NCBI GenBank assembly: GCA_964016885.1
Contig: OZ024742.1
Coordinates: forward strand, 253,146,001-253,210,000
Length of the DNA stretch: 64,000 nucleotides
From: Eledone cirrhosa
Lineage: Eukaryota
Reading direction: 5' to 3'
Shown: positions 13,838 to 42,669 of the stretch, piece after piece
How positions within the stretch are numbered: the stretch's first letter is position 1
Layout: each line of letters begins with the position of its first letter
Program-made: the position numbers and the translations under genes
Notes under the pieces: generated by a model
What the model saw: the letters and a program-made list of their open reading frames with translations, nothing else
The model's database searches: none
Told to the model about the DNA's origin: nothing

Positions 13838-14175
13838 GGAGGAACATGGCTTAGTGGTTAGAGCATTGGCTTTGCAATCGAAAGGTTGTGAGTTCAATTC
13901 TCAGACCGGGTGATGTGTTGTTTCCTTGAGCAAGACACTTTTTTTCAGATTGGTCCAGTTTACTCAGCTGTAGAAATGAGATGATAGGGATTGGGGACCA
14001 TATCATTCCACTGCAAAGTGGTCGTGGAAGTGCCACAGCAAAAAAGCACCCAGCACCCAGCACTCACTGTAAATGAGGTTGGTGTTAGGAAGGGCATCCA
14101 GCTGTAGAAATCAAGCCAGAATCAGTTCCCATCCCACCCTTGCAAGCAGAGAAAAGCGGATGTAAAATGATGATA
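13838..14175 (+). mobile_element. SINE family B, full length
   Basis: catggcttagtggttagagc head, RTE-like tail, (gat)n; flanked by (TA)n. Confidence 0.9.
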
Positions 14176-14197
14176 TATATATATATATATATATATA

Positions 14198-23872: not shown

Positions 23873-24459
23873 TTATTCTCAAGGAAATACCAACCCTATG
23901 TACAGGGCTGTATCATTCATAAGGTTGACTAACATGCTCGTCTCAGATTAGTAATGATAAACTTAGGAAAATTAACAAAGAGAGGACTAGAAAACAAATG
24001 AAAACCCAAACAATTCCCCAAATAATTTTTTATGGGGAAACCTTAAGAAATTATTTTTTTGAAAATTAATTAATTAATAAGTGTTATTAAATTGATAAGC
24101 CCTAATTTTACTCCGTAATGTTTATTCAAGTCAAAATACGAGTATTAAATATAACAGCCAAACTAAAAACTACATAGTTGATGCATTACTAATAATTTTT
24201 TAATCTCTACATCTAGTCTTCCATAACTTTTAAGATTTTTCGGACTATTGTAAAGTTTGTTTATGTTTTTATGAATTATTTCGTGTTTGGAGACATTCGG
24301 ACATGTGGTTGGTAAAAAATATGTAATGATTCTGATGAATTCAATACAGAGGAATAAAATGCAACTTCCTTATGTATTTGAATGAAATGCATATATATCA
24401 ACTAAAAAGTGTATTAAAACATGGTTATTATTTATTCATTATATATATATATATATATA

Positions 24460-24574
24460 GGAAAAAGTATGACTCCGACGGCAGAGCTCAAGCCGTTTCG
24501 ATGGCTATTTCTGGACTAAATTAGAATGTTTAGCCTGGTGAATAAATAGCCGAACTTGTCAAGGGGGTACTTCC
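24460..24574 (-). ncRNA. Type I hammerhead ribozyme, U3-A8 core variant, in the inverted pLTR
   Basis: Minus: ggaagtaccccc-TTGACAA-..ggctattt...aaatagcc..-GAAA-cggc ttgagctct gccg-TC-ggagtcatactttttcc. Confidence 0.7.
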
Positions 24575-26071
24575 TTATATGGGAAGATTATAGTTGTCAA
24601 GAGGATTGGAGGTATGGGTGGCGGAACTTGCCTGTAGAACAATAGGGGAGTGAGTGGAGCGGTCAAGCGTTGAAAGTGATATGTATACAGCAGATTCTAA
24701 GGATAGTGTATGAAGTGGAGGAGGGACGTTATAGAATAAGTAAACACCTATTGGGAAAATCTTCTTTAGACTCCTCGAAAAACACTTCCCACTACAACAC
24801 CGCTACCACAACATAATCAACAAAAGCACCATCAAACTCTCCTACAGCACCACACCTAACTTCGCACAAAACATTGTCTCCTCAAACAACAATAAACTCA
24901 ACCCCTATGGAAGAAATAACCTAGACATCAGTGGAGAGCCGACCAGGGGGTGTAACTGCCCTGATAGATCTACCTGCCCCCTCAACAACAAATGCCGAGA
25001 ACGTAACGTGATCTACCAGTGCAACGTGAGGACGGACACCTCCAACAAAGCTTATATAGGATTAACCGCGTGTGACTTCAAGACCCAACTCTACCAACAC
25101 CGACATACTTTCCGAAACCTGGTCCGGCGACATGCCACTACACTTTCGGGCCACATCTGGGACCTCGAAGATAATAATATAACCTACAATCTCACTTGGA
25201 GCTTACTGTTCAGAGCTAACTCTTACACGGGAGGACGCCGTCCGTGTAACTTATGCTCGGAGGAAACATTACAAATGCTGTTTTCGAAGGACCAATTCCT
25301 AAATAAGAAAGACAAACTGGTAACCGCATCCAAACACAGATTGCGTAGGACTTACCTCGCCCTCAAACCCCATAACGGTGGGTAGACAAGGGCTGATACT
25401 CCCCCCTCTTGCCGAATAAGTTAGGGGAAACCTCAGCTTACATAGGTATATGCATATCGTTTCTTTTCTTTTCCTCTTTGTCTTCTTCTTCCCCCTGTCT
25501 CATCCTATCACTTCCTTCCACCCCCTATTTTCTTCCTCGTCTGCTTTTCCCCTTTCGCCTAGCCCGATGCAGCCAATCGGGCCTCTGTAGCATCAGTTCC
25601 CCACCCCTGTAATTTTAAGATAGAATTGTCCGAATACGTTTTATTAACTACTTATAGCAGACGAGTTAAACCCCTTTAATTCTGTATCAGTTCTGGTACT
25701 ACTCAATTTCTACAAGTTTTTTCTATTCTCAACTTATTAACCTGTAATTGTAAGATAGCATTGTGATTTTTTTTTTATTCATTTCTCACTATCTAATTTT
25801 ATATATATATTTTTTATTTATTTTTATTTATTTCTATTATCTTTTATTGTCTCCTACTCTCATTCGATTTACTTATTCTATAACCTCCCTCCTCCACTTC
25901 ATACACTATCCTTAGAATCTGGTGTATACATATCACTTTCCATGCTTGACCGCTATTGTTCTACAGGCAAGTTCCGCCACCCCTACCTCCCACCAAATGC
26001 CATTATAGACTTATTTGTGTTTACAACAAATGTTAACCAATACTCTTGACAACTACAATCTTCCCATATCA

Positions 26072-26185
26072 GGAAGTACCCCCTTGACAATTCGGCTATT
26101 TATTCACCAGGCTAAAAATTCTAATTTAGTCCAGAAATAGCCGTCGAAACAGCTTGAGCTCAGACGTCGGGGTCATGCTTTTTCC
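26072..26185 (+). ncRNA. Type I hammerhead ribozyme, U3-A8 core variant, in the 3' pLTR
   Basis: cccc-TTGACAA (26084-26090), stem II cggctattt/aaatagccg, GAAA (26146-26149), GTC (26166-26168), gggg; stem III has mismatches in this copy. Confidence 0.65.
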
Positions 26186-26291
26186 TATTTACCACTCTAC
26201 TACCCTAAGTATTGAGTACTCTGGTGCGTTATGGTCCATCTGGTTCCTTACCACAATTCCTTTGTTTTATATATATATATATATATATATA

Positions 26292-26437
26292 TCATCATCA
26301 TCATCATCAGGTTTAGCGTCCGTGTTCCACGCTTGCATGGGTTTGGACGGGGGTTTTCCCACTTGAGGCAAGAGTGGTTGTCTTGCTCGCATAGGACTGT
26401 CTGGCGGGTTTTCTACAGTTGGATGCCCTTCCTAACA
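26292..26437 (-). mobile_element. SINE 3' part (family-B-related), same as 43795-43945
   Basis: Near-identical reverse complement of 43795-43945; (gat)n tail. Confidence 0.8.
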
Positions 26438-26461
26438 TAGATATATATATGTATTTATATA

Positions 26462-29400
26462 TCTATCTAAGGCGGGTAAAATTCCCGAGATCCATGGACG
26501 AGTTCTCTCCAGCGGTCTCTGTCCCTCATTATCGCTGCCATGTCCTGCATCTCCAACAGACCAGTGTCTGTCCTTAGGGCATCAACATATGTTAACCTTG
26601 GTCTTCCTTTTCTAGTGTGTCCATGTAGGGGCTCCCAAAGGAGTACTGAGTGCAATGTCAACTCTGGATGTCGGTGAGCATGTCCAGCTAACCTCAGTCT
26701 CCTCTGTGTCACTTTTGAGCTGACTCTTGGGATGCTCCCATACAGCTCTGAGTTTTTCATCCTCAGTGTATACTGATTAATGTTCAGAGCCATCCTCAGC
26801 ATTCTCGTGTAGCACCCATCCACCATCTGAGTGAGTTTCTTGGTCAGTGTCCAAGTCTCAGACCCATACAGCAGCACAGACTCCACTACAGCAATGAAGA
26901 GGCGGACTTTCAGGTCTCTACGAAGGTCCGACTTCCACACCGATCTCAAGCTGTGGCATGCCGCCCAGGCCTTGCTCTTCCTCTCAACCACATCATCTTC
27001 CGTATTCCCAATCTTTGCTCCCAAATACAGGAAGTCCTCAACCAATTCCAGCGGCTTCCCGCCTACATTAGTGATCCCCTCTGGCTTCTCAACATTCTCT
27101 ACCAGATATTTTGTTTTAGTCTCATTCATTCTCAGCCCCACCCTCATCGACACAGTCTCAACCTCCCGCATCAAATCCTCTGCCTCCTTCACTGTATTTG
27201 TCACCAAAACTATGTCGTCGGCAAATTCAGCATCCGATACCTTTTTCGCCTTAACTCTCCTGCTCTGAGCCGGTGCTACAGTAAAGCCAGAGACCTGGTG
27301 TTTCTCCAGTGCAAGGCGCATACAATAGTCCACTACGATGATAAAAAGGTAGAGAGCCAATGTATCTCCCTGGAGCACTCCAGCCAGTATCTCAAAGAAC
27401 TCTGTCATCCCATCAGGTGTAATGACTTGGGCTTTGGTGTTGGTGTAGAGCAGTAATATCAGGTCCACTATCTTCTTGGGGATTCTATAAGCCTGTAAGA
27501 TCTTCATCAGGCAGTAACGGTTCACAGAATCAAAGGCCTTCCTAAAGTCAATGAAAACCATGACCGCAGGAAGGCACTTTGCTCTAGCTCCCTCTAATAT
27601 CCTCCTCAGCATCAGGATGTGACTGGTGGTCGATCTACCCTCTCTGAAGCCGTTCTGGTTGTCCCTGAGCTTCTTCTCCATCTCAGGCTGGATCCTGTTA
27701 AGAATCATCCTGTTGAGGGTCTTTGCCACAAGTGACATCAGTGAGATCCCCCGGTAGTTGTTGGTGTTAGAGAGATCTCCCTTCTTTGGCACTGGGACGA
27801 TGTTACTGATCCTCCACTGATTCGGGGCAACTCCTTTCTCCAGTGCCCCGTTACAGAACCCCAGGATGATATCATCAAAATCACACCTCTTCATCACCTC
27901 TGATGCCACTCCATCTTCTCCATGAGCCTTGCCCTCCTTGATCCTCTTCTTGGCTCTCTGAAGCTCCTCTCTGGTGAAGGGCTCTGTCTCAACATCCAGT
28001 TCCTCAAATAGCTGCCTGATCTCCCCAGTGCTCTGGGCTGTGGAGGGTGGCTCTCCTAGTAGGGTCCTAAAATGGTCTAGCCATTTCTTCTTCCTATCCT
28101 CGGGCCCCGTTCCCTGGATCTGACTCGAACACCTTCTCTTCCTCCCTGTGATCTCGTTGATGATCATCCAGCTCTCCTTACATCCAGATCTGTCAACCGC
28201 TCTCTCCACACTTCTGATCTTCTCTATCAGTGCCTCCTCTCTGACCTCAGTGTAAGCGGTACAGAGCTCTTCCCTCATCACCTCCACAGTCTCCATCCTC
28301 TCCTCCGTAGGATCAGCATAGAATTGGTCCCTGGCAGCTTTCAGGTGTTCTCTGGCTGCACACACTTTTGGGTTTGCAGAGCTGACGTGCTTCCCTTTGT
28401 TCTTTTTCCTCGGCACCAGGGTTTCACTTGCTTCCGCCACTGCATTGGTGAAGTGCCCGTACCTCCTCGTCACACTCTCCTCAGTCCATCCAATCTCTCT
28501 CTCCTCTGACTCTCCACACAGAGCACTAAACCTGTTTCTCACTTCCACTGTGAACCTCTCCTGTAGCTTATCATCTTCCTTGAAAGCTCCCCAGTCATAG
28601 ATTGTTCTCCAGGGCTGAGCCTTGCTCTTTCTTAAGCTCACGCGGACCTCACTCATAACAAGCCGGTGGTCACTACCCAGTGTACTGAAATAGCTGTATG
28701 GTTCCGTGTTCAGAACACTATTCCGCCACTTTTTCCTCACCAGAATGAAATCAACCTGGGACTTGGACAGGTGCATATCTGAGATGTAGGTCCACATCTT
28801 CCCCAGATTCTTCCTAAACCCTAGGTTGGTCGCCATCAAGTTCGCCTCCAGCAGGGTGTCTCTCAGTAGTCTTCCATTTCGGTTGGTGTTGTTATGGAAG
28901 TACCAGCAAGGATCTTCACTGCCCTCCTTACTCAGATGTGCATTGAAGTCCCCCAAAACAAGCAGGATATTGTGTGCCTGAGTGGTGTTGACAGCTCTAC
29001 ACACCTCCTCATGGAACTCTTCCGCATTCACATCACTGTCTCCCTTGGTTGGACTATAGGCTGAGATGACTGTCAGTCTTGGGTTTCCATTGAAGGTCAC
29101 CCTCAACACTCGCGGGGAGATAGGCATTATTTCCCTCACCAACAGATTGGTTTTTGCACTGAACACAAAACCCACTCCTCCTACTGCAGCATTTGTTGTG
29201 TTCTTCACTGCCGATGTAGTGATGAGCTGGCTCTTCCTCCCAATTATCACACTCCTCACGGGCTCATCGTGTAGGATCCTGTGTTCTTGGATCGCGAGTA
29301 TCTGTATACCACTCTCCTCGAACAGATGGCCCAACTCCTCTCTCTTCCCCAGCGTCCGAATAGTCCTCACATTCAAAGTGCCCATTTTGATGGCTCTTCT

Positions 29401-29629
29401 GCAGGACAAAACTGCATTCTTTATATTTGTCTCAGAGACAGCTGATCCATCATCCACTGGCCCTCTCTGTGGCTCTAAGCCAGCAGAGTCATAACGACCA
29501 GGCTGCTCCTTGACTGTAATTAGGGGCTCTAACCCTAGTGCTGTTAGATCGACTCTCCATATTTCTTTTCAATGGCTGACAATACCTTACCGGCGCCACT
29601 TGAATAAGGTAGTTATTTACCCCATAAAT

Positions 29630-29632
<3 letters not shown>
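26462..29632 (-). mobile_element. Full-length RTE-clade LINE flanked by (TA)n
   Basis: Single APE-RT ORF, short 5'UTR, essentially no 3'UTR, (TA)n at both ends. Confidence 0.9.
26467..29457 (-). CDS. Intact 996-aa APE endonuclease-reverse transcriptase (RTE clade)
   Basis: GTLNVRT, AIQEHR, GDFNAH, SQVDFILV, SDHRLV; NYRGISL, QNGFREGRST, FIDFRKAFDSV, GVLQGDTL, FADDI, FLYLG, LLYGSETW, GRPRLTY; no stops. Confidence 0.95.
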   Translation of the reverse strand: MDDGSAVSETNIKNAVLSCRRAIKMGTLNVRTIRTLGKREELGHLFEESGIQILAIQEHRILHDEPVRSVIIGRKSQLITTSAVKNTTNAAVGGVGFVFSAKTNLLVREIMPISPRVLRVTFNGNPRLTVISAYSPTKGDSDVNAEEFHEEVCRAVNTTQAHNILLVLGDFNAHLSKEGSEDPCWYFHNNTNRNGRLLRDTLLEANLMATNLGFRKNLGKMWTYISDMHLSKSQVDFILVRKKWRNSVLNTEPYSYFSTLGSDHRLVMSEVRVSLRKSKAQPWRTIYDWGAFKEDDKLQERFTVEVRNRFSALCGESEEREIGWTEESVTRRYGHFTNAVAEASETLVPRKKNKGKHVSSANPKVCAAREHLKAARDQFYADPTEERMETVEVMREELCTAYTEVREEALIEKIRSVERAVDRSGCKESWMIINEITGRKRRCSSQIQGTGPEDRKKKWLDHFRTLLGEPPSTAQSTGEIRQLFEELDVETEPFTREELQRAKKRIKEGKAHGEDGVASEVMKRCDFDDIILGFCNGALEKGVAPNQWRISNIVPVPKKGDLSNTNNYRGISLMSLVAKTLNRMILNRIQPEMEKKLRDNQNGFREGRSTTSHILMLRRILEGARAKCLPAVMVFIDFRKAFDSVNRYCLMKILQAYRIPKKIVDLILLLYTNTKAQVITPDGMTEFFEILAGVLQGDTLALYLFIIVVDYCMRLALEKHQVSGFTVAPAQSRRVKAKKVSDAEFADDIVLVTNTVKEAEDLMREVETVSMRVGLRMNETKTKYLVENVEKPEGITNVGGKPLELVEDFLYLGAKIGNTEDDVVERKSKAWAACHSLRSVWKSDLRRDLKVRLFIAVVESVLLYGSETWTLTKKLTQMVDGCYTRMLRMALNINQYTLRMKNSELYGSIPRVSSKVTQRRLRLAGHAHRHPELTLHSVLLWEPLHGHTRKGRPRLTYVDALRTDTGLLEMQDMAAIMRDRDRWRELVHGSREFYPP

Positions 29633-29714
<82 letters not shown>

Positions 29715-30149
29715 CATATATATGCATATACATATATATGCGGTGCCCCAGCATGGCCTCAGCCGGATGGCTGAAACAGGTAAAAGAGTATATATGTATA
29801 TATAATTATCAAACTCGTGTTTTTACCTATCACTCATTGAGAGTTTCAGTACACCAGTGACAAATAACCTTCTGTTTCATATATGTCATCAACACCATCA
29901 TCATCATTTAACATCCATGATATATATATATAATATATGTACACCAATTTCCGTAACTTTTGGAGTTATTGGAGGTGGCGCTAATATTAGCACTCAATGC
30001 TAAAGCAGCTGTATAAATGATGCATAATAAGATGAAGTTTCACATGAATGTTTTTATAGATTATCGACCAATTACGTATGATTCACAGATGAATGGCTTA
30101 AGGCCCATATTTGTATTATAATATACATATATATTTAATCAACATAGGG

Positions 30150-30815
30150 AACCACTTCTGCCTTCTATTAATATTGCTGATCATACTCTTCAAGAGAGAA
30201 ACTCTATATGCCTTCTTGGTCTGACATTATCTAATGATTTGAGCTGGAATAATTATATCACACCGATTGTGATTTCTGTCATGTGTGAAACATTTTTCAA
30301 GCCTGAAAATATCTTATATCATTATGACTCTACTATTCATATTGAATACTCTAACCACATCTGATATGGTGCTTCTACCTTGCACCATGAGAGTCTAGAT
30401 AAGATCTAAAGAAGAATCATCAACATTATTCAACATTATTGGTCCTGACTTAGGTTGTTTTCAATCACTATCATACCATCGAAATGTTACTTCGTTTTGC
30501 TTTTTTTTATAAATATTTTCATGGGAATTCTTCTGATGAGCTTTCCTCTTTGTTTGCCCGTCTTCATGAGTTTAAACAGAGTACCAGATTAACAGCTAGG
30601 TCTCATCTATATACAGTTGAAGTTCCTAAATGCAATTGCAAATCTTATTCTGATAATTTTGTCCCTTGCACATCTTGCCTATGGAATTCTGACAATGACA
30701 ATTTTAAAAAATTCAAAAGTGTCATCAATCATCATATCCCTCTTTTCCTTTTCCCATCTCAGTAAACCCTAGCATTTTACTGGCTCTGTTGCCTTGTTTT
30801 GGGTTTGTAAATAAT
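30150..30815 (+). pseudogene. Decayed 3' end of a CR1/Jockey-group LINE
   Basis: LSNDLSWNNYI; FFYKYFHGNSSDELSSL..STRLTARSHLYTVEVPKC..NFVPCTSCLWNS. Confidence 0.6.
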
Positions 30816-30886
30816 ATATATATATATACATAAAAGATAAAATGAAGTTTCAATTTAATTTCTTTTTATTCTTCATGAAATATGAT

Positions 30887-30972
30887 GCATGTTTTGCAGA
30901 TGATGAAATGCACACAGGTATATATATATATATATATATACCTGTGTGCATTTCATCATCTGCAAAACATGC
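30887..30972. repeat. Perfect hairpin, ~33-bp arms around a (TA)n loop
   Basis: gcatgttttgcagatgatgaaatgcacacaggt / acctgtgtgcatttcatcatctgcaaaacatgc. Confidence 0.9.
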
Positions 30973-31001
30973 ATCATCTGCAAAACATGCATATATATAT
31001 A

Positions 31002-31448
31002 TCTATCTAAGGCGGGTAAAATTCCCGAGATCCATGGACGAGTTCTCTCCAGCGGTCTCTGTCCCTCATTATCGCTGCCATGTCCTGCATCTCCAACAGA
31101 CCAGTGTCTGTCCTTAGGGCATCAACATACGTTAACCTTGGTCTTCCTCTTCTAGTGTGTCCATGTAGGGGATCCCAAAGGAGTACTGAGTGCAATGTCA
31201 ACTCTGGATGTCAGTGAGCATGTCCAGCTAACCTCAGTCTTCTCTGTGTCACTTTTGAGCTGACTTTTGGGATGTTCCCATACAGCTCTGAGTTTTTCAT
31301 CCTCAGTGTATACTGATTAATGTTCAGAGCCATCCTCACCATTCTCGTGTAGCACCCATCCACCATCTGAGTGAGTTTCTTGGTCAGTGTCCAAGTCTCA
31401 GACCCATACAGCAGCACAGACTCCACTACAGCAATGAAGAGGCGGATT
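31002..31448 (-). mobile_element. 5'-truncated copy of the intact RTE LINE
   Basis: Near-identical to 26462-26908; one premature stop at 31211. Confidence 0.95.
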
Positions 31449-31466
31449 TTCATATATAGTGGCAAT

Positions 31467-32615
31467 GTATTTGTTTTGAAAAGTTTTTGATATAAAATCA
31501 TGTGTTGAAACAGATATTGATATATTTAGGGAGGGTCATGTTGTCCTAATATTGCCCCCCAAAATAGTAAAACGCACTCACTGCTTAGTTTGGCTTTCGC
31601 TTCAGTTTCAGTATATTTTTTTTCATATTTCCATAAATAATTTAGCTGGCAATCAATGTTTATCAATGATTGACCAACAGTTAAAAAAAAAAATAATTAT
31701 AATTTCTCAAAGTTCTTTTGTCACACATTTCTGTGACATCTTCAGTGATTATTGCTGTGTTTTCTCCCGTTGTGTTTCTATAACTTTTTTGGTTGTCTCT
31801 GTTTGTGCATGTGTTTGTGTGAATGTATTCTGTTTGGCGTGTGCTTGTGTATTTGTGTCTGAGTCTGCGTGTGTTTATGTGTTTATATTCTATCTTTGGC
31901 CACTAGTGTGTGTTTGTGTGTGGTTGTAGCTATTCCACTCATGTTTTCTGTTCAGCCTAGGTTTTCTAAAAAGAAAACCCAGTACTATATGAACATGCCA
32001 GACTAAAACATGATTGTAAAATAGACAACATAGAAGTTAAAATAATATCTAAACATAGGAATGACTCGACACTTAGACCAATTAGGGAGGCTAAAGAAAT
32101 AGAATTAAGAAAACCTAGGCTAAACAGAAAACATGAGTGGAATAGCTACAGCCATACACAAACACACACTAGGGATCAAAGATAGAATATAAATATACAC
32201 AGATACAATAACAATACCCACACGTCAACACACACTAGTGACCAAAGAAAGACTATAAACACATAAATGCATGCAGACTCAGACATGAAACATGAGCTTA
32301 CACCAAACAGAATACATGTACACAAATGCATGCAAAACCAAAGATACCTAAACAAAGTTATAGAAACACAACAACGGGAAACACAGCGATAATCACTTAA
32401 GATATTACATAAATGTGTGACGAAAGAACTTTGAGAAATTATATTCATATATATATATTTTAACTGTTGGTCAATCAGTGATAAATATTGATTGCCAGCT
32501 AAATTATTTATGGAAATATAAAAAAATATGTTGAAACTGAAGCGGTAACCAAACCAAACAGTGAGTGTGTTTTACTATTTTTTTGGCAATACTAGGACAT
32601 GACTCTCCCCAATTA
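31467..32615. mobile_element. Fold-back (inverted dimer) of a non-coding repeat, arms ~31527-31968 and ~32108-32612; relative at 62841-63332
   Basis: The arms are diverged reverse complements around a ~140-bp spacer; each carries a decayed HHR-like CTGAAGA-gtcaca/tgtgac-GAAA motif. Confidence 0.85.
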
Positions 32616-32812
32616 TAACAATACATATATGTATATATGTATATATATAATATTCTATGTCTATATTCACATATATATCGCTATTTCAGAGCATTTATTC
32701 CAATTTCTAATTTCTGCCGGACCGGCAACCGCTCTTTCAAACCAGTTCCTGTACACAGCTAAGTATTCTATAAGTCTCTAGCTGTGTCATTCTCGATAAA
32801 AGCACTGGATAT

Positions 32813-32855
32813 GTAGTCCTGATGATTTCTAACAAGAATGAAACGCGTAGATTAC
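32813..32855 (+). ncRNA. Minimal type I hammerhead ribozyme
   Basis: gtagtc-CTGATGA-tttctaacaagaat-GAAA-cgcg-TA-gattac; stem I gtagtc/gattac extended by a 16-bp helix attctcgataaaagca/tgcttttatcgagaat; palindromic stem III. Confidence 0.9.
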
Positions 32856-33122
32856 TTCCCTTGCTTTTATCGAGAATCTAATTGTAATACGTGACGTATT
32901 CTATTCTATAGCGATTAGGTCTTCAAAATGTTTATTATAAACATACAGAATATTTTCGAATATTCTATGTCTATATTCACATATATATCGCTATTTCAGA
33001 GCATTTATTCCAATTTCTAATTTCTGCCGGACCGGCAACCGCTCTTTCAAACCAGTTCCTGTACACAGCTAAGTATTCTATAAGTCTCTAGCTGTGTCAT
33101 TCTCGATAAAAGCACTGGATAT

Positions 33123-33165
33123 GTAGTCCTGATGATTTCTAACAAGAATGAAACGCGTAGATTAC
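33123..33165 (+). ncRNA. Minimal type I hammerhead ribozyme (second unit)
   Basis: Identical to 32813-32855, shifted by 310 bp. Confidence 0.9.
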
Positions 33166-33367
33166 TTCCCTTGCTTTTATCGAGAATCTAATTGTAATAC
33201 GTGACGTATTCTATTCTATAGCGATTAGGTCTTCAAAATGTTTATTATAAACATACAGAATATTTTCGAATATTCTATGTCTATATATATATATATGTTT
33301 ATCCCAGGTTCAATTAGGGGTAACCACAGTAAGTAAGGTACTCAATACATAGCATAGTATAAATATT

Positions 33368-33450
33368 TAATATAGAAATGGCTTCTACAGGACTAGATGA
33401 TTTCCTTCGAATGAAACGGTTCTAGTCCTATAGAAGCCATTTCTATATTA
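33368..33450 (+). repeat. 30-bp-arm hairpin enclosing a hammerhead-like core remnant
   Basis: taatatagaaatggcttctacaggactaga / tctagtcctatagaagccatttctatatta (1 mismatch) around (GA)TGA-tttccttcgaat-GAAA-cggt-TC. Confidence 0.7.
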
Positions 33451-34256
33451 TATATATATTTAAATTGGCACTACTGATGCCACAATAAAATACACTTAGC
33501 CCACACTGTAAAGTGATAGTACTGATACCATGGTAAATGGACCCAGGCCACTCTGTAAAATGGTAGTGCTGGGGTCACAAGAAAGCTCTCAGTTCACCTT
33601 GTTATATGCTAATGGCAGTGTTACAATAAAATGCACCTGATACATGCTATGAAGAGGTTGTTGTTAGGAAGAGCAGCCAGTCAGAAACCTCACTAGAATG
33701 GAATGTATGAGTGAGATGTAGTCATCTGACTTGTCTGACATCAGAATGTAACAACCCACCTAACCTTTGCAAGTATGGAAAATAGAAATAAATTATTGAT
33801 ATACATACTCATAGAGAGAGAGAGAATGAGGTAGAGAAAAATGTGCTGCTATAGTGTTTAAAATATTTAAGTGAAACATATTTACTTTACCTCTCTTTGT
33901 ACATGTGTGTGTGCACAGAGTGAAAGAGAGAGGGAGAGGGAGTGATATATATATATATATATATATAGACAGAGAGAGAGAGAGAGAGAGATGCTATGGA
34001 GGTAGTACATTATACAAAGGGGATTTTGAAGTCATTTATTAGGAAGTAATTGTATTTTTTCTTCTGTGCTTAAATAAGCACTTTCTCTGTTACTATGACT
34101 GTTTTAGCTCTGCAACATCCATTTCCCGCGCTACATAGATATTTAACAAGTAAGGTGTTAAAGAAAACAATAGAAAGAATATTGAATATATGAAATGAAG
34201 ATTAGGTTCACAATATCTTTTGTTGTTGAAAATACTGTGTACCTAAAAATCATTAA

Positions 34257-34495
34257 CCCTTTCATTACCATATTTCCAATGAAAGACACTGCCTACGATG
34301 TTCAAATCATTTTTTAAATAATCAAGAATTTGGAGTAATTTAGTAATATAACTAACTTTCTCATTATTAAGTTTGTATTTGGAACATAACTTAACAAAGG
34401 TTCTTATATTAAATTATAAAAGAAGGTTTTTAAATGAATATAAATACTTGAAAATAAATACCAAGGGCATTTCAGATAGTTTGGTATCAAAGGGG
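34257..34495. mobile_element. piggyBac-like MITE with TTAA TSD
   Basis: TTAA|ccctttcattacca ... tggtatcaaagggg|TTAA. Confidence 0.7.
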
Positions 34496-34509
34496 TTAAT
34501 ACTATGTGT

Positions 34510-34945
34510 AAGTATTCTTAGTACTAATTCTTACAACTGGTGCCTCTGCTGACAACAAAGTGCTTCTCTTTCAGACTGTACAATGCCTCTAGGAAAACTG
34601 CTAAACATAGCCTTGACTTCAGAAGACCTGAGAAGGTTAGAAATAAATAAAGTGAGTATGCTCTGAAAGATATGTAACATTAGTATGCATAAACAACGTA
34701 GCATAAGCGAATTGACAGAAAAACTTGGCATAAGAAGTGAAAGTAGTGTGCAAGAGAGAAGACTGCATTGTATGGACATATGATGCATTTGGAAGTTGAC
34801 AGCTGTTTAAAGAAGTGCAGGGAATTTCAAGTGGATGGGAGGGACTCATGAAAGAGGTAGACATAGGATGAAGTAGTGAAAACTGATCTTAGGAAGCTGA
34901 ATCTCATAATAGAGTTGACAAAGGACTTGATTAGAAGACTTGCCT
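34510..34945 (+). pseudogene. Old RTE LINE 3' fragment
   Basis: Decayed LVPLLTTK..EDLRRLEINKVSML..EKLGIRS..VQERRLHCMD, homologous to the C-terminus of ORF 15865-17028. Confidence 0.75.
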
Positions 34946-35392
34946 AACAGGAATTTGACCTAACCTGACTTGACCCATCCATCTGTTCTCCCCTTTATTC
35001 TCACTATCACAGCACACCGCACCTGTTTCATCTCCCCCATCATGCTCCCCTCAAACTACTCTAACTTTCACACTCTATCAATAACTCTTACCTTCATACC
35101 CCCTCACGACCCAGGTGGGTAGACCTCGGCTGTATTTCCTTCCCAATTACAAACTAAGATAGAGGAAACCACAAGAATACTTAGGTAGAAATACAATTTT
35201 TTCTTTGTTAGTTATACATTCTATTACACTTAGGTGGATCTTTGCATATTTATACTATTATAAACAGTTCCTAATCTTCCTTGGGTAATATTTCTACTCT
35301 AGTTAAAATATACATACAGCCCTATGGAACTGGCCGAACAGATAGCTCTGACACCTTACTAGACTAGGGTTGATTTTTGGGGTGAATGATTA

Positions 35393-38038
35393 CACCGTGT
35401 AACAAAAATTTTTTTTTCTCTGTTCCTGGCTTGTAATCACTTTTTTTGTGTTGCTTAGGTCCCAAATAAATAAAAAAGTGCTATTAAACAGTTAAAAGTT
35501 TGGGTCTTTAAAAATTCTAAGCTATTCACTAGAAATATATTTTATCTTGGATTTTAGGTTGTATGTAAGTTTAATTTGCTTATGTTAAATGATTTTTTTT
35601 TTATATGTTTCAGGTTAAATTAAATTATAAAATAAAGAGTAATACCTAAAGAAAATTATAAAAGTGCAATAAAGTATAACATTGTTAAAAAGTGGATTAA
35701 AGAGATTTATTGATACTGAATTTTTGCACCCTGAATAAAGGGTAAGTTGTGTTTTAAGCACAAATTTTCATTAGTATGATTAGTGTTCTTTTATATTATT
35801 TAAATATGTATTTCCCTTTCCAATATTTATTTTGTATTGCATATCAAATTTATTTTGTATTTTAGGTTTCGATCATGACATTAGACTTGTAATTAAAAAT
35901 TTCTTTCATTGAACTGCACTGCAATTTGGTGCTAAATATTAATTTTTGTTTTCAAAATTTGATGACTTTAGCCTGAATTACCCTACTTATTTTATACATG
36001 TATGTTCACTTAACATGTTTTTATTTATACTTTCAGATCTATAAGATCTATATTTTCTGACTGCATGTATTTCTATATTTTTAGAATGGCTTCAAAGGCT
36101 GCTGGCACCACCCTGACTCTTTCTGTTTTATATGTGGTGAGTATATAAAGAAGAGAGGCAAAAAATTCTCCTTGGAAACGTTGGTGAAGGTTTGTGAAGC
36201 CTACCAGAAGTACTTTGAGATGCCAGTTGGGGACCAGGACAAGCCCTGGGCCCCTCACTACTGTTGTGAACACTGTAAGAAGACGCTGGAAGGGTAGCTG
36301 CGAGGTGAGAAAAGGTCCCTGAAATTTTCCAACCCGCGGGTCTGGTTAGAGCCAACAGACCACGCCACAAACTGCTTTTTTTGCATGGTGGATGCAAGCA
36401 GCGGAAAGGAAAGAATATTGCTGATGTAGATTATCCAGATCTTCCATCACCAATTGCTCCAATTCCTCACTGCTCCAAATATCCCGTGCCCGTGCCACCT
36501 GCTCCAGATGAAGTCCAAGACAAGTATTCTGATGAAGAGGAGGAGATGGATGCTGAGGACTTGGATTACCTGCCTGAGGTACCAGAAAAAGTTCCTCACT
36601 TCCCAAACCAAAAAGAAGTCAATGACTTGGTCTGGGATATGGGTCTGACCAAGTCTAATGCAGAGCTATTCGTCTCCAGGATGAAGCAATGGAACTTGGT
36701 CAAGGAGGAAGTGCAGGTGACAAGTCAGAGAAATCGACACAAACCTTTCTCAGGCTTTTACACTCTTAGGGATGGCCTCTGCTTCTGCCATGACGTGCCT
36801 GGACTGTTTGACATTATTGGGGTGCCGTTTGTGCCCAAGGAGTGGCGGCTATTTATAGACAGCTCCACCACAAGTTTGAAGGCTGTCCTCCTCCACAATG
36901 GAAACAAGTTTCCGACACTGCCCCTAGCTCATTCAGTAGGCCTGAAGGAAGATTACTACAGTGTGAAAGTCCTCTTGGAAGCTCTGCAATACAACCAGTA
37001 CAATTGGGAAATCATTGGAGACTTCAAGATGGTGGCTTTCCTGCTTGGACTCCAAGGAGGCTTTATAAAATTCCAATGCTTCCTCTGCCTTTGGGACAGC
37101 AGAGCCACCTCTGACCACTACAAAAGAAAGAACTGGGAGCAGTGAACAGAATTTGTTGTTGGGACGCGGAACGTCATGTGGGAGCCACTGGTTGATCCCA
37201 GGATTGTGCTCATGCCGCCACTGCACATTAAGTTGGGGTTGATGAAGCAGTTTGTGAAGGCTCTCAATCAAGAATCAGCCGCTTTTAAGTACATTCTTGA
37301 GTTCTTCTCCAAGTTATCTGAGGCCAAAATCAAAGGTGGAATTTTTGTTGGACCTCAGATAAAGAAGGTGTTTGAGTCTACCGAGTTCTCCAATAAGCTC
37401 AATAGGATTGAGAGAACAGCATGGAACTGTTTCAAGGCAGTTGTTAAGGGCTTCCTGGGCAACTACAGAGCTGAAAACTACTAGCAACTGGTGCAGGATC
37501 TGATAAAGGCTTTTGGCGCCATGGGATGTAGGATGTCGCTTAAACTTCATATGCTGGATGCTCACCTGGAAAAATTCAAGCACAATATGGGCACCTACTC
37601 AGAAAAACAAGGCGAACGATTCCACCAAGATGTGAAAGAAATAGAGCGGAGGTACCAGGGCCACTACAATGAAAAAATGATGGGGGACTATCTGGGGGCT
37701 AGTGCGGGAATGCGACCTGGACTACAACTGCAAATCCAGGAAATCCAGTCATTTCTGACGTGTATAAGTTGCTTTATAAGTGTTATTTGTTTTTACTTGT
37801 TTGCTTTTGATAAGCTTGTGTAATAAAATAAATATATACTCTGTTGATTTAATTATATGAACTGATAAATTAAAAAAAAATGTGTTTTTTCTTGAAAAAT
37901 ATGAAAATTTCGAAATATCAAACTCCTGACCACAAACCCAAACTTCTAATTAAATAATAGTGATTTTTATAATAATGGGATATAACAAACCAGGAAATGA
38001 CAATTAGAACCAGGGAACAAAAATTATGTTACACGTTG
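35393..38038 (+). mobile_element. Chapaev3 (CMC superfamily) DNA transposon, both ends intact
   Basis: TTA|caccgtgtaaca ... tgttacacgttg|TTA: TIRs with CAC start and a 3-bp TTA TSD; internal transposase. Confidence 0.85.
36086..37760 (+). pseudogene. Chapaev3-type transposase with stops and frameshifts
   Basis: HPDSFCFICGEY..GDQDKPWAPHYCCEHC..DHATNCFFC; WRLFIDSS..SLKAVLLHNGN; GDFKMVAFLLG..CFLCLWDSR; PPLHIKLGLMKQFVKAL; SLKLHMLDAH..QGERFHQD. Confidence 0.85.
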
Positions 38039-38450
38039 TTATAGTAAATTAGTGTATTGAGGTGCCCTTCCTGTGCATTAGAGTAATTGATAACTAAACT
38101 TCTTTATCAAGAACTGAATTAGTATTAACATCTAAATGCTTTGGTCTTTAGCTAAGTGTTATTTAACTTAAACTCCCTAACTACTTTCTTTGATTCTTAC
38201 ATGCTGAAATTGTATTCTTACCTCTTTGAATTGTAGGCTACCATCTCTTTAAATGAAAGATAGTTGTATAGATTTCTCTCTTAACGCCTGACTGGCTTGG
38301 CACCCACAAGTCACATTGTCTTCTTGCTCCCTCCCCTTTGTCCTTCAGGAACATTGACCACTCCCCGTGACAGACAACAAAAACAACAAATTTTTAGGTT
38401 TTTTTTGCTTTGATTTCTGCTTTTTTCGTTTTGACTGCATGCCCTTATAT

Positions 38451-38645
38451 GGACTGTACCCCTTGATAAGTTCAACTAGATTCCCGCTGTTCTAATACTG
38501 GTGGCTTGGTTCGGATCTAGCTGTTGAAACGGCTGGAGCTCAGCCATTGCGGTCCTGACTATTTTCCTATTACCCACTCTACTACCCTAAGCATTGAGTA
38601 CTCTGGTGCCTTATGGTCTATCTGGTATTTTACCACACCTTCTTT
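38451..38645 (+). mobile_element. Solo pLTR-like segment with a U3-A8 hammerhead, related to 26072-26262
   Basis: cccc-TTGATAA (38463-38469), ctagattcc/ggatctag, GAAA-cggctg gagct cagcc-ATT, then the shared tail ccactctactaccctaagcattgagtactctggtg. Confidence 0.7.
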
Positions 38646-38724
38646 GTTCTTTAGCACCTACTTCAGTAGTGGAGCACTCTTCGATCCATACCACACTCAA
38701 ATCCTGACACTACTGCCAAGCTTC

Positions 38725-38759
<35 letters not shown>

Positions 38760-38767
<8 letters not shown>

Positions 38768-41700
38768 TGCAGTATCGTAAAAGAGAATAGAGAGAAGAGG
38801 TATAAAGAGGTGCGATACAGAATATTACATGCCAAAAGCGGGTGCGTAAGTGTTCGATGCCTGGGTTATCAAGGTTAAATATTAGAGAAAATTAATATTT
38901 AGTGTACAGGATTAAGCAGAGCGGTGATAGGCAAAATAATTAATGAAAGAGTTACAAGCCATTAAATCATATCTTTATAAAGCTCTTACACATGTTTTGC
39001 CCAATGGGGTTCGTCTGAGGCAGATATTAAGGCAAAGTTTTTAATTAAATACCCTGTTCGGGTAAAATAATAATTTAACATCAGAATGCATATTACATAT
39101 ATGTTGTTAAGTATAGAAAAATGGTGGAAAGATGTTAGTATGCTAAGGGAGGTAATTACCGGTGCTGGTATAATGTTTCTTCTCAAACTAATGACCGCTA
39201 CCGGCTTAGTAAGAAATTTTATTTATTATTTAAAAGGAATTAACGTAAGTAGGGTTGGTCAACTCAATGTAATGAGGCGGTGTTAAGGTGTGAGTATGAA
39301 TTATTAGTAAAGTCATTAAAGACTATACACAGGTTTAACTAGTGCAATGTGGCAAGTTCGGTGTGAGTTTGAAGGTCTAGAAAGGTAAAGTCACTTTAGA
39401 TAGAATTTGTATATTTATATGATCAGTTGTCTAAGAAATAGCTTGGGTATAAGCGGCGGTTCTGTAAAATTACCCAAAGATCGGTCTGACCGTGTGGATG
39501 AATATAGCAGGGTAGGCCCAGCTGAATATATGCAGTGCAGCTTCCTGGAGGGAAAACAGAGGGTGGATGATGGTGTTGTTCCAAGTTGTTTAATGGTAAG
39601 TCAACCGCCGGTAAGTCAGGCCAGAGTGTGGTGTTGAGAGCATCAGGTGTTATGGTGGTTATGTAGTTGTTGGGGTCCATCTATAGAAAGATTGTTGCAG
39701 TCGATGGCCGCAATTGATAACAGTTTCAGCCTGACTATTCATGAGGTCCAGGGGTGCTTGCACTATATAATATAGTTCCATCAGGCAGAGTTGGCAGCTT
39801 TTTAAAAAATTGTATGTTGTTGTTTGGTTCACAATTTCCCAATGAGTGGTGAAGCTAATGTTAGTGTCATTTAACTGGGTGATATAATTAGCGAGAGAGG
39901 TAGAGTATCTAAGCTTCCTATTCCTAAAAGAGTGGAGATGTGCCCGAAATCTTGTCTTGAACGCTCCAGAAGTAGCTCCTATGTAAGACTTAACACTATT
40001 ATGACTAGTAACCGTGCATCTATAGATAATATTTTTAGTCAAGCAGTAGCCTCGGAGTGGACAGCCCACAGGGTTACGACAATTGCAATGGTTTTTTGTT
40101 GTCACCTCTAAGGTGGTGAGTGTTGGTGTTAATTGTATTGTTATTATTACCACCATCACCATAGCTACCATAGTTGTGGTTGGCATTATTATCGCTATAA
40201 ACATGCAAAATGGTGCCATTCCCACCTCTCATGCTATAGCGTCTTCTACAGCCATTGTTAGAGCTGCTATGGTTTCTAACCGTGTCGTCGGTCACACTAT
40301 TGGTGCTGCAGTTAGTTTCTACTATGATGCTATTGTGTAATCTACTGCTAATACTAAGGTACCTGTTCTGGTTACTACTATCGTTATCGTGCAGGGCGAG
40401 AGAACTGTTAAGGTTAACTGAGTTGTCATATTCACTAAAATTCTTATTACTAGCATGTTGTATTCTAGTGAGCTTGCTGTGGTTACTTATTGCTATGAGG
40501 TCGGCTAGATTAGGTGTAGTGGAATAGGAGATTTTTAAGTTATTCTTATTGAGGATTTTTCTGTATCTGTGGTTTGGTGGAAAGTTCCTCTCTAAGGTGT
40601 CAAAAAAGATACTGGGTAACTTGGAGGCCACACTCCGAGAGTAGAGGGATGGAACCATAGGACATTACGGTGGCGATTCTGCGTAGTTCTAGGGTTACTA
40701 CGGGTTTTATTGCCTTAGTAGGTGCCCCTATCATGGCTATAGGGCTGCTGTATAATGTGTGCTCTGTTGGCATTATGCCTGAGTGCACAGACACCCCCAG
40801 TACGGCAGTTTAGGGTTACCCTAGGCGGGTTATAAGGTGTAGGTAACAAACTGTCACCTTTATTAAGCTCGTAAGCGGGGAATAATTCCAGTAGGCTGCA
40901 GTTATTACTATAATCAGCCGGACCATGATGGTGTGGGTATGGTAATATACCCGTCCCGCTAGCTTTATGGTTAAGATGCGGGCCGTAGCCAGTGATATTA
41001 TTAACTCTTCTAATACTTTTTATGCTTGTAGGGCCGCTGTGGATTTGGTTATAGGTATGGCTCGCTATAACACTGTTCCTACACGAGGGGGGCTTTATAG
41101 AGCCTGCGTCGTGGAGGTATGAAATTTTGCTGTTATAACCTGAATCAGCCAATGCCTTGTTATAATAATCAGCAGTTTGGCTGAAGAGGTCTTCATTAGC
41201 AGAAAGCCTCGAGATTCTATGTGAGATGCTATACACAATAGAGTTGAGCATAGATTTAGGGTGGTTAGAAGCATAGTTGATGTAGGAAAGGACCTCACCA
41301 GGCTTGTGGTATGGTCTGTATAAGCCGGTACCTAATTATAATGTAACATCTAAGAAAATAACTATATTATGGTTGTGGTCTATAGTTACAGAGAGGCCTT
41401 ATGATTTAAAGAACTTGTGTATATGTTTATTAAAGGTTTTCTATCCTACGAGGCCTATGGTTCTTTACAGTGAATAGGGCATCGTCCCTATACACACCTC
41501 CTTGTAGCACAATGATCTTGTCTCTAAGTCTGTGCAGGAGGTAAATCCCAGCCATGTCAGTTGCCTGCGCTGAGTCACTTGACCCCATTGTGATATCAAA
41601 GTTATCAGGATGGCTGGTTCTGGTCCAGTAGGAGCCCTCGAAATAAATAATGGTTCTCCGCGCTCAAGCACTATATCTATTTCTTTTTTAGTTAAACTAG

Positions 41701-42532
41701 TGTTAGATCTAGCTAAGATGAGGGCCTTATTTAGGAGTATAGGGGAAATAGAGGCGTAGTAATTGTCTATGTCGAACTGGATAAATTTCAGAGATGCCTT
41801 ATCGGGTAGATCTGTGAACCATTTAATGACCTGGTCGGTATTGTTCCAGAGACGGACCTTAGCTTTACTATTAAGTTCAGGTATTATCCTATCAAGAATC
41901 ACTTTGCTAATTCTACCTATATCTGAAGTGGAGGAGCATATTAATCTTATAGAGGGTCTTTCATTAAAATTATATTTGTGATCCTTAAGAGAAAATTTTG
42001 GTGCCATAGGTACATAAGGGTTAGTGTATTTATCTATATCTAAGCTAGTTACAATGTCTTTGCCTAATCTATTAATGTTGTTTAAAGTGCTACTAGGCAT
42101 TTTCATGTAATTTTTGTTTAATTCATTATAGATGAATTGTCTGTATCTACTTACATTCAACTTATACAAGTTCTTAGTTTTAATAGATGCAATAAAAAGG
42201 TGCCTGTCATTCTTGATCTTAGTGATGAGAGAGTCCGGGGATGTCAGGAACGTATTGCTGCATTTGCGTCTATTCTTAAACTTGATATTTTTGATCATCT
42301 TGAGCAAATCTTCCTTAAATGAGTCCAACAGTGTATTGTGCGGTGGGTTCCGGTAGGTCTTAAAACCGTATTTTTCTTTAGGTACTGGAAGATTATCAGT
42401 ATCCTTATCCAAATGGTAGGCCCTCCATCTGACCCTACGTATAAACGAATTCGTAGTGGAAATGAGTTGTTTAAGGTAAGTTTTCTGCTAGGTATAGACT
42501 TGAGAGACATAGGTAACGGTTGTTTCTCCAAC
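38760..42532 (-). mobile_element. Near full-length, frameshifted Naiad-type Penelope-like element
   Basis: EKYGFKT..PP..FKEDLLKMIKNIKF, KTKNLYKL, LKDHK.NF..P.IRLI, FIQFDIDNYYASI; C-terminal CNCRNPVGCPLRGYCLTKNIIY..YIGAT..CQLCLME GIY-YIG; decayed HHR at 38982-39022 in the 3' region. Confidence 0.9.
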
Positions 42533-42565
<33 letters not shown>

Positions 42566-42669
42566 AAAGGTAAACAGAAATAACAACACAATTGGTACAG
42601 TATATGGAAGGTATATATATAATATATGCAAATATATATATATATATATGAAGCATATAGACAATATGC

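Follow-up and report, generated by a model that had tools for sequence, protein, structure and literature searches.

A young hammerhead retrozyme family of Eledone cirrhosa, likely written into (TA)n by Hydra-clade Penelope-like elements

The tandem dimer described here lies in a 64,000-nucleotide stretch of the Eledone cirrhosa genome (the window; contig OZ024742.1, positions 253,146,001 to 253,210,000). We regard it as likely that the dimer represents a young non-LTR retrozyme written into (TA)n by a Penelope-like element (PLE) of the Hydra clade, with the enzyme likely rolling on a 310-nt RNA unit. The footprint of this process consists of two priming sites, a random run length, and a single haplotype per insertion. 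It addresses the route by which animal retrozymes get back into DNA, as well as the origin of the tandem and inverted insertions of PLEs (PMC8557442). Because the footprint has been mapped and intact candidate enzymes occur in the same genome, both mechanistic questions are testable. The combination of the PLE two-arm pattern with evidence for a single-unit template is unusually good mechanistic evidence for a known class of element.

The window copy and its hammerhead

The original prediction, made from the letters of the window, was of an exact 310-bp tandem dimer of a non-coding unit with a short third start, embedded in (TA)n, and these points are borne out (Table 1). TRF calls a repeat at 32649-33286 with a period of 310, 2.1 copies, and 100% matches, and the two full units agree in every letter. 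The third start is 18 nt long, with C33281 as its last non-TA base, and (TA)n follows on the right; on the left, the flanking TA tract is imperfect. The longest stop-free run around the unit is 59 codons on the plus strand and 46 on the minus strand, the GC content of the region is 0.34, and searches of the unit for a tRNA head, an ORF round the circle, or Pol III A/B box matches found none. The sequence of the unit is the most frequent haplotype of the family (21/89 insertions). Relative to the family, the window copy is atypical in having a single short-end arm of 2.06 units and no inverted arm.

Table 1. Positions of the retrozyme copy, its ribozymes, and nearby PLE remnants in the window
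Feature	Position	Strand	Remarks
Hydra-clade PLE remnant	24744..25385	+	C-terminal endonuclease; young subfamily has intact 784-codon frames
Left TA-rich target tract	32626..32648	.	End of fold-back element 31515-32623
Unit 1	32649..32958	+	310 bp; 5' junction inside TA tract; no inverted second arm
TA-rich pad (unit 14-30)	32662..32678	+	Short 3' ends land here
Family long 3' end site (unit 56-63)	32704..32711	+	Site not used by the window copy
16-bp helix around hammerhead 1	32789-32804/32862-32877	+	Second copy at 33099-33187
Type I hammerhead 1	32813..32855	+	From sequence, co-fold, and sub-threshold HH9; predicted cut after 32849
Predicted monomer from double cleavage	32850..33159	+	310 nt; putative circle precursor
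Unit 2	32959..33268	+	Same sequence as unit 1
Type I hammerhead 2	33123..33165	+	Basis as for hammerhead 1; predicted cut after 33159
Unit 3 start	33269..33286	+	Corresponds to the family's short 3' end at unit position 18; then (TA)n
Broken Hydra-clade PLE	39659..42487	-	RT precedes endonuclease; frames of 927-928 codons in young relatives

Several other repeats surround the dimer. A fold-back element of 1.1 kb (31515-32623), with arms that are ~83-94% complementary, terminates in the TA tract where the dimer inserted. On the other side, a 39-bp inverted repeat at 33359-33459 surrounds a decayed hammerhead-like core with a stem II resembling that of the retrozyme unit; relatives at three loci (L193, L196, and L277) have an intact core and the same U-U-closed stem II, and the repeat is probably an older short element bearing a ribozyme. 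Two LINE-like frames with endonuclease and RT motifs are present at 26467-29568 (minus strand) and 14089-17028 (plus strand), one with 1,033 open codons and the other broken by stops. Further, the region from 24267 to 42649, dimer included, has a segmental copy on the same contig at 252789500-252807900, 381 kb upstream (loci L160 and L132). The two copies are 100% identical over 9.9 kb and 99.7% identical over the next 9.9 kb; either the segment was duplicated very recently or the assembly contains a doubled haplotype.

On reading the sequence, we find the proposed hammerhead parts and the cut sites at 32849 and 33159 to be in place. In hammerhead 1, stem I (32813-32818/32850-32855) has six pairs, one of them G-U; the core (32819-32825) is followed by stem II (32827-32830/32835-32838), GAAA (32840-32843), and a palindromic 6-nt stem III (32843-32848), and the predicted cut falls after A32849, which is unit position 201. 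The original prediction overlooked that stem II is closed at its base by a U-U mismatch (10.1-11.1). The surrounding 16-bp helix had been described as a perfect extension of stem I; its pairs are Watson-Crick throughout, with pair probabilities of 0.52-1.0, but it is joined to the ribozyme via two internal loops and a 3-bp stem. The 98-nt motif has a fold z of -5.8 (0/200 shuffles fold as well), and the monomer has a fold z of -4.4 as a linear and -4.1 as a circular molecule.

Stem III has a 2-nt loop and closes only across two copies. When two copies are co-folded, the double hammerhead is the predicted minimum (-17.7 vs -11.6 kcal/mol for two monomers), and it is still lower when the 16-bp helix is included (-68.7 vs -62.6), which agrees with the dimeric hammerhead through a palindromic stem III that had been envisaged. 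PMC4209133 reports this dimer route where helix III is short and palindromic, and also a core variant with U3-A8. The Rfam search that had been suggested reported solely Hammerhead_HH9, at 19.2 bits (E 0.25) and so below the gathering score of 52, while Hammerhead_1 was absent from output that keeps only the best overlapping match of a clan. Some doubt attaches to the activity of the hammerhead because of this far-sub-threshold score, the U-U pair in stem II, and the Xenopus retrozyme dimers, of which 8/9 failed to cleave in vitro (10.64898/2026.07.22.740005). A hammerhead pattern with C before GAAA gave 10 genome matches, comprising 2 variants of the unit and 8 unrelated single motifs. We regard the retrozyme as almost certainly a functional hammerhead repeat family.

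Family size, age, and selection on the RNA

Genome copy numbers were counted as pattern matches to pieces of the unit. Exact copies of the 31-nt core number 4,587, most of them 310 bp apart, against 0 for a control; leaving the core free and fixing stem II yields at least 5,052 units. The exact long-end form (unit 56) has 1,013 matches and the short-end form of the window copy has 143. A rough extrapolation, using the share of unselected long ends that have the counted form (5/8) and ~8.5 units per insertion, would put the family at ~1,600 insertions and ~14,000 units.

Sporadic divergence inside arrays is 0.05%, and the family is therefore young, in line with the recent spread that had been proposed. 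That proposal was derived from the identity of the two window units, which by itself says little, since at this sporadic rate 620 bp would be identical about 3 times in 4. An older subfamily has a 312-bp unit of 94.5% identity, and sister families are roughly 70-80% identical over the shared part. The older sister families (L268-L297; 4,760 genome matches) share the end region (unit ~240-90) and the long-end position with the young family, and differ from it in the sequence of hammerhead and helix; a long helix of another sequence stands at the place of the 16-bp helix. A weak 3-bp hairpin at unit 32-44 (pair probability 0.08) is kept in sequence in the 4,760 sister-family matches. It resembles hairpins that follow the long ends of two Hydra-clade PLE families of this genome (families A and B below), but in the retrozyme it follows the short end, and the short end of family B has no hairpin.

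The counts also bear on whether the dimer is an assembly artefact or a chance hammerhead-like match. The duplicated region 381 kb upstream, identical over 9.9 kb, and the sub-threshold Rfam score could be read in this sense. Against this stand thousands of units at ~1,000 or more loci, structure-preserving variation, and independent contigs over the joint: three runs from other studies each yield a closed contig of 340 nt (310+30) with 0-1 differences over the head-to-tail joint. An artefact is hardly credible: at the family level the 4,587 core matches, mostly 310 bp apart, and the three contigs speak for a real repeat.

The same closed 340-nt contigs could instead reflect a viroid-like RNA that crosses species and of which the genome copies are a record, as could the presence of 76-100% of the unit's words in 20 public runs, which between them carry 17 coded organism labels. 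However, two of these runs (X1 and X3) also contain scraps of other host repeats at a depth of 2-4, the mark of trace host DNA; a third (X2) is the host species itself, with its unique DNA present at 99-100%; and not one read falls on the unit body in 1,938 million letters of raw data from organism J, though a sister run has the unit. In the runs tested, which were 6 of the 24 listed, the spread over 17 labels is trace DNA and not transfer, and a viroid-like agent is very improbable. The runs listed as containing the unit include no RNA data set, which is neutral as to expression.

Variation among copies is informative about the RNA. Variant types in helices keep pairing in 7/9 cases when they are array-wide and in 2/18 when they are sporadic (Fisher p 0.0012), and inherited variants of the 16-bp helix retain pairing. 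Core variants are absent (0/32 types, ~1.2 expected), a weak test alone. The commonest array-wide variant, T178A (25/89), converts the U-U of stem II to A-U. Upstream of the family landmark we collected 46 hammerhead rows, of which 29 were compared and 17 rare young-family rows were left out. Among the sister-family rows (n=11), the core pair is C3-G8 in 3 and U3-A8 in 8 and never mixed, and stem III has other, longer sequences that are perfect palindromes in 6/11 rows. The pairing-preserving inherited variants, together with the core covariation in sister families, indicate that the ribozyme is maintained. This argues that it works; what role it would play is a separate question.

Some details of the variation can be recorded here. 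The commonest inherited variants cluster at unit 175-186, at hammerhead positions that are free to vary (N7, the base of stem II, and loop 2). Eight insertions are fixed for one extra nucleotide at unit 204, just 3' of the cut, and both A167G and A150G turn up repeatedly on different backgrounds. Variant types number 8 for A>G and 7 for T>C, and A-to-I editing as a source of the recurrent A>G variants is inseparable from selection for G-U pairs.

Insertion anatomy, template, and helper

Insertions were mapped at 131 loci, 10 of them picked via the core, 70 via the short end, and 51 via the long end; matches of <90% identity, the window duplicate (L132), one inter-locus overlap, and L001-L030, which overlap L031-L040, were left out. 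This gave 137 insertions, of which 105 are complete. Nearly all complete insertions (98/105) consist of divergent arms arranged head-to-head and ending in (TA)n, and 7/105 have one arm, like the window copy. A long end (unit 56-63) is paired with a short end (16-30) in 91/98 two-arm insertions, a pattern that recurs in each pick group (core 8/9, short end 39/46, long end 44/50). Two short ends never occur together (0/98), two long ends were scored once (1/98), and one odd end is present in 6/98, three of these six being older variants with a blast end at 56. The short 3' ends of the family fall at unit 16-19, 21, and 29-30, and 221/229 scored 3' ends run into TA repeat, about half of them having been picked by a pattern that requires TA.

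The other ends behave differently. The 5' ends are evenly spread over the unit (chi-square p 0.11) and are not enriched at the ribozyme cut (7/192 within 197-207, 6.8 expected), and arms cross the cut site 794 times without a surplus of stops. The expectation of permuted start points therefore holds in part: the 5' ends are random, whereas the 3' ends are fixed at two sites. Arm length has a mean of 4.25 units and varies smoothly from 0.1 to at least 19, and an exponential is not rejected (p 0.09). The long-end arm is the longer one in 60/89 insertions. At the inversion point, 54/96 show an overlap of 1-8 nt between the arms. Formation of the second arm by fold-back copying of the first cDNA was considered and is ruled out by the 29/89 insertions in which the short-end arm is longer. 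One insertion contains 272 nt of GC-rich, unrelated sequence between its arms (L037:2599-2870), which comes from neither PLE family A nor family B and is possibly a capture of another RNA.

PLE hallmarks, as listed in PMC8557442, are an inverted 5' copy, a one-sided 30-40-bp tail, and (TA)n targeting. The inverted 5'-truncated copy is present in 98/105 complete insertions and missing from the window copy, and the one-sided tail is seen in 91/98, where ends at 56-63 are matched by ends at 16-30 (tail 26-40 nt). Mobilization by PLEs had been suggested for the window copy, and this footprint of two arms, one-sided tail, and (TA)n supports it; we consider it very probable that the family was integrated by PLE machinery.

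Haplotypes carry most of the information on the template. Across 89 insertions of at least 3 units (687 units), arrays are uniform inside and different between loci, with 35 haplotypes, many of them nested. Counted per array, variants present in every unit number 129; a further 85 are confined to a single unit and 17 to a pair of units, and 5 occur in intermediate numbers. The two arms share a haplotype in 53/59 insertions (37 non-reference), compared with a shuffle mean of 7.5 and a maximum of 17. Where a new variant fills a 20-unit array, one unit must have been the template. Sporadic indels at unit 197-206 are absent from 731 units. Haplotype does not predict where the long end falls (p 0.78, n=45), and ends are thus reset at each insertion; the short-end type is weakly linked to haplotype (p 0.019 unadjusted, n=52). 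The repeated copying of one unit that had been proposed is supported by the single haplotype per insertion and by the cut-site crossings. A closed monomer fits the one-haplotype arrays, the uninterrupted crossings, and the non-inherited long ends, and we favor, with reasonable confidence, a covalent circle as the main template.

A rival, unlikely as the main route yet live, is that the same PLE machinery copies a linear RNA of more than one unit, its 5' end possibly made by the hammerhead, with the RT jumping back from the 5' end by homology and no circle involved. Mirrored variants in both arms, which are impossible from a monomer circle and occur in L228, L212, and, in mixed form, L204, are the reason to retain it. 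In L228, each arm goes twice through one haplotype before changing to another; L212 has one mirrored variant, and L204 switches haplotype within a single arm. A linear, terminally redundant template would account for the mirrored outer units of L228 and L212 and for the irregular recurrences in L215, L037, and L110 (in L215, one variant unit recurs five times at irregular spacing), and terminal redundancy could also explain near-perfect 3,531-bp PLE tandems with 0-1 differences over four units. However, mirroring is found in 3/89 insertions vs 68 unmirrored, and ~34 mirrored would be expected at the present array variant density, an expectation that loses force if source copies were always very young. 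The jumps would also have to be near-perfect, given the 794 cut-site crossings with no surplus of stops and no sporadic indels, and the long ends are not inherited with the haplotype. The linear, terminally redundant template with jump-back is probably a minor route, and a small minority of insertions likely derive from multi-unit templates or later rearrangement.

Another possibility is that short PLE-type insertions were lengthened later through unequal crossing-over or slippage, as satellites are (array growth of this kind is discussed in 10.64898/2026.07.22.740005). The 17 two-unit variants, doublets that are mostly 2-7 units apart, do point to some local duplication or conversion. Such growth predicts many intermediate variants, against the 5 seen beside 85 singles and 17 doubles, and it sits poorly with arm lengths that run smoothly from 0.1 to 19 units without rejecting an exponential and with inverted arms that are both long and alike; we judge it improbable.

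For the preferred reading, rolling on a circular unit, we envisage the following sequence. A tandem copy would be transcribed, and neighboring hammerheads are predicted to pair via the palindromic stem III and to cut after unit 201; the product would be a 310-nt monomer, to be circularized by a host ligase. A PLE endonuclease would nick both strands of (TA)n, and the two free 3' ends would prime reverse transcription within the unit, at 56-63 in one case and in the other at the TA-rich pad (14-30), which we infer to anneal to the nicked target; the footprint of this step is observed. Each RT would then roll past the ribozyme junction for a random run of ~4 units on average, the pattern of lengths being that of the mapped arms. 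In the final step, the far ends of the two cDNAs are seen joined, mostly at 1-8 nt of microhomology, which gives the head-to-head arrays.

The helper had been sought in the Naiad clade of PLEs. That label is wrong: in both PLE remnants of the window the RT precedes the endonuclease and Hydra-clade motifs are present, and neither they nor their intact relatives have an N-terminal GIY-YIG endonuclease. According to PMC8557442, the Naiads of cephalopods are old remnants, and the marks of the Hydra clade are a C-terminal endonuclease and RWK-like, DKT, CxCX5C, CxxC, and CxH motifs. Intact PLE frames of 714-928 codons are present in the genome, so that autonomous PLEs co-occur with the retrozyme. 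The window remnants fall into two families, A and B, that have young intact members. Family A encodes 784 codons and terminates at two sites separated by 83 nt; it forms near-perfect 3,531-bp tandems and carries a complete U3-A8 type I hammerhead; family B has 927-928 codons, a tail of ~168 nt, and a U3-A8 core; families C and D, found with a distant query, have 719 and 714 codons. At least four PLE families of the genome carry Hydra motifs. In families A-D the endonuclease comes last and RWK-like, DKT, and CxCX5C motifs are present in translations read by eye against PMC8557442, and by eye the helper candidates also show the CxxC and CxH motifs expected of the Hydra clade; a Pfam scan of five PLE proteins gave zero matches. 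Families A and B, whose ends were mapped, also insert as divergent arms in (TA)n with one end longer and the other shorter.

The remnant at 24744..25385 represents a candidate class of helper. Blastn detected no similarity to the unit in 8 family A loci, nor in the PLE portions of a set of 30 loci (families C, D, and A), and none was found by eye in the ends of family B; the mapped PLE tails (83 and ~168 nt) differ from the 26-40 nt of the unit. No chimera with one retrozyme and one PLE arm was found; retrozyme and PLE insertions only lay side by side in common TA tracts. We nevertheless hold that the helper was probably of the Hydra clade. More tentatively, it may be that two Hydra-clade RTs, starting from two fixed sites inside the unit at the two nicks of a (TA)n target, roll round the same ribozyme-made 310-nt circle, that the RNA is filtered for structure in each cycle, and that autonomous Hydra elements multiply through circles in the same way. 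At one place (L141-L142, G000:C1:437.20-437.21 Mb), an autonomous Hydra element forms >4 head-to-tail 3,531-bp units with a short inverted arm; four units have 0-1 differences, and the element's hammerhead, of the U3-A8 type, is complete and has a long stem II.

Relation to known retrozymes and Penelope-like elements

The anatomy of a non-LTR retrozyme, as first proposed for the window copy, is upheld with respect to unit size, hammerhead, lack of coding capacity, fold, and co-occurring PLEs, and the family belongs to the known class of metazoan non-LTR retrozymes in all features tested here. Examples of that class come from coral, mussel, and axolotl (Cervera and de la Pena 2020, PMC7229834), and a vertebrate survey is available (Li, Clavereau and Pollet 2026, 10.64898/2026.07.22.740005). 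As far as the available sections of these two papers describe them, such retrozymes are non-coding tandem units of 150-450 bp with low GC content, one type I hammerhead per unit, a weak palindromic stem III, self-paired RNA, and thousands of copies, and PLEs are their proposed mobilizers; the axolotl HHR_Amex2 shares the U-U at the base of helix II. Mobilization by PLEs and rolling reverse transcription are proposed in the accessible parts of PMC7229834, 10.64898/2026.07.22.740005, and PMC7761336, in which an end footprint is not reported. The PLE link in 10.64898/2026.07.22.740005 is made via co-occurrence and homology, with the mechanism deferred to future work. Retrozyme repeats show no helper-indicating motif according to PMC7761336, and circles are suggested as templates for PLE tandems in PMC4209133.

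Our searches of the literature, which covered main texts outside subscription journals, found no cephalopod retrozyme and no two-armed retrozyme insertion. Two-arm insertions, fixed 3' ends, (TA)n targeting, and the one-haplotype pattern go undescribed in the available sections of the metazoan retrozyme papers. Further, Xenopus retrozymes are homologous to PLE pLTRs (10.64898/2026.07.22.740005), whereas the 310-bp unit matches none of the four PLE families examined, and published retrozyme circRNAs have been demonstrated, whereas the 310-nt circle is here a proposal drawn from genomic DNA.

Among PLEs, the Hydra clade (Craig et al. 2021, PMC8557442) shares with the retrozyme (TA)n targets, an inverted 5'-truncated copy, a one-sided tail, a hammerhead near the 3' end, and head-to-tail tandems. 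The retrozyme differs in having no ORF, in arms that reach at least 19 whole units, in a cut site ~140-165 nt upstream of the 3' ends (beside the ends in Hydra elements), and in a tail of 26-40 nt compared with 83 and ~168 nt in the two mapped Hydra families. The Naiad clade likewise shows a (TA)n bias, an inverted copy, and a 30-40-bp tail in the same source, but its endonuclease is N-terminal and canonical hammerheads are missing, whereas the PLEs of the window have a C-terminal endonuclease. Comparable too are non-autonomous PLE derivatives such as MRC1 of Chlamydomonas, also in PMC8557442, which lack proteins, are moved by a PLE, and form multicopy head-to-tail insertions; their 3' ends are similar to those of the helper, and in the sections available they are not described as ribozyme circles.
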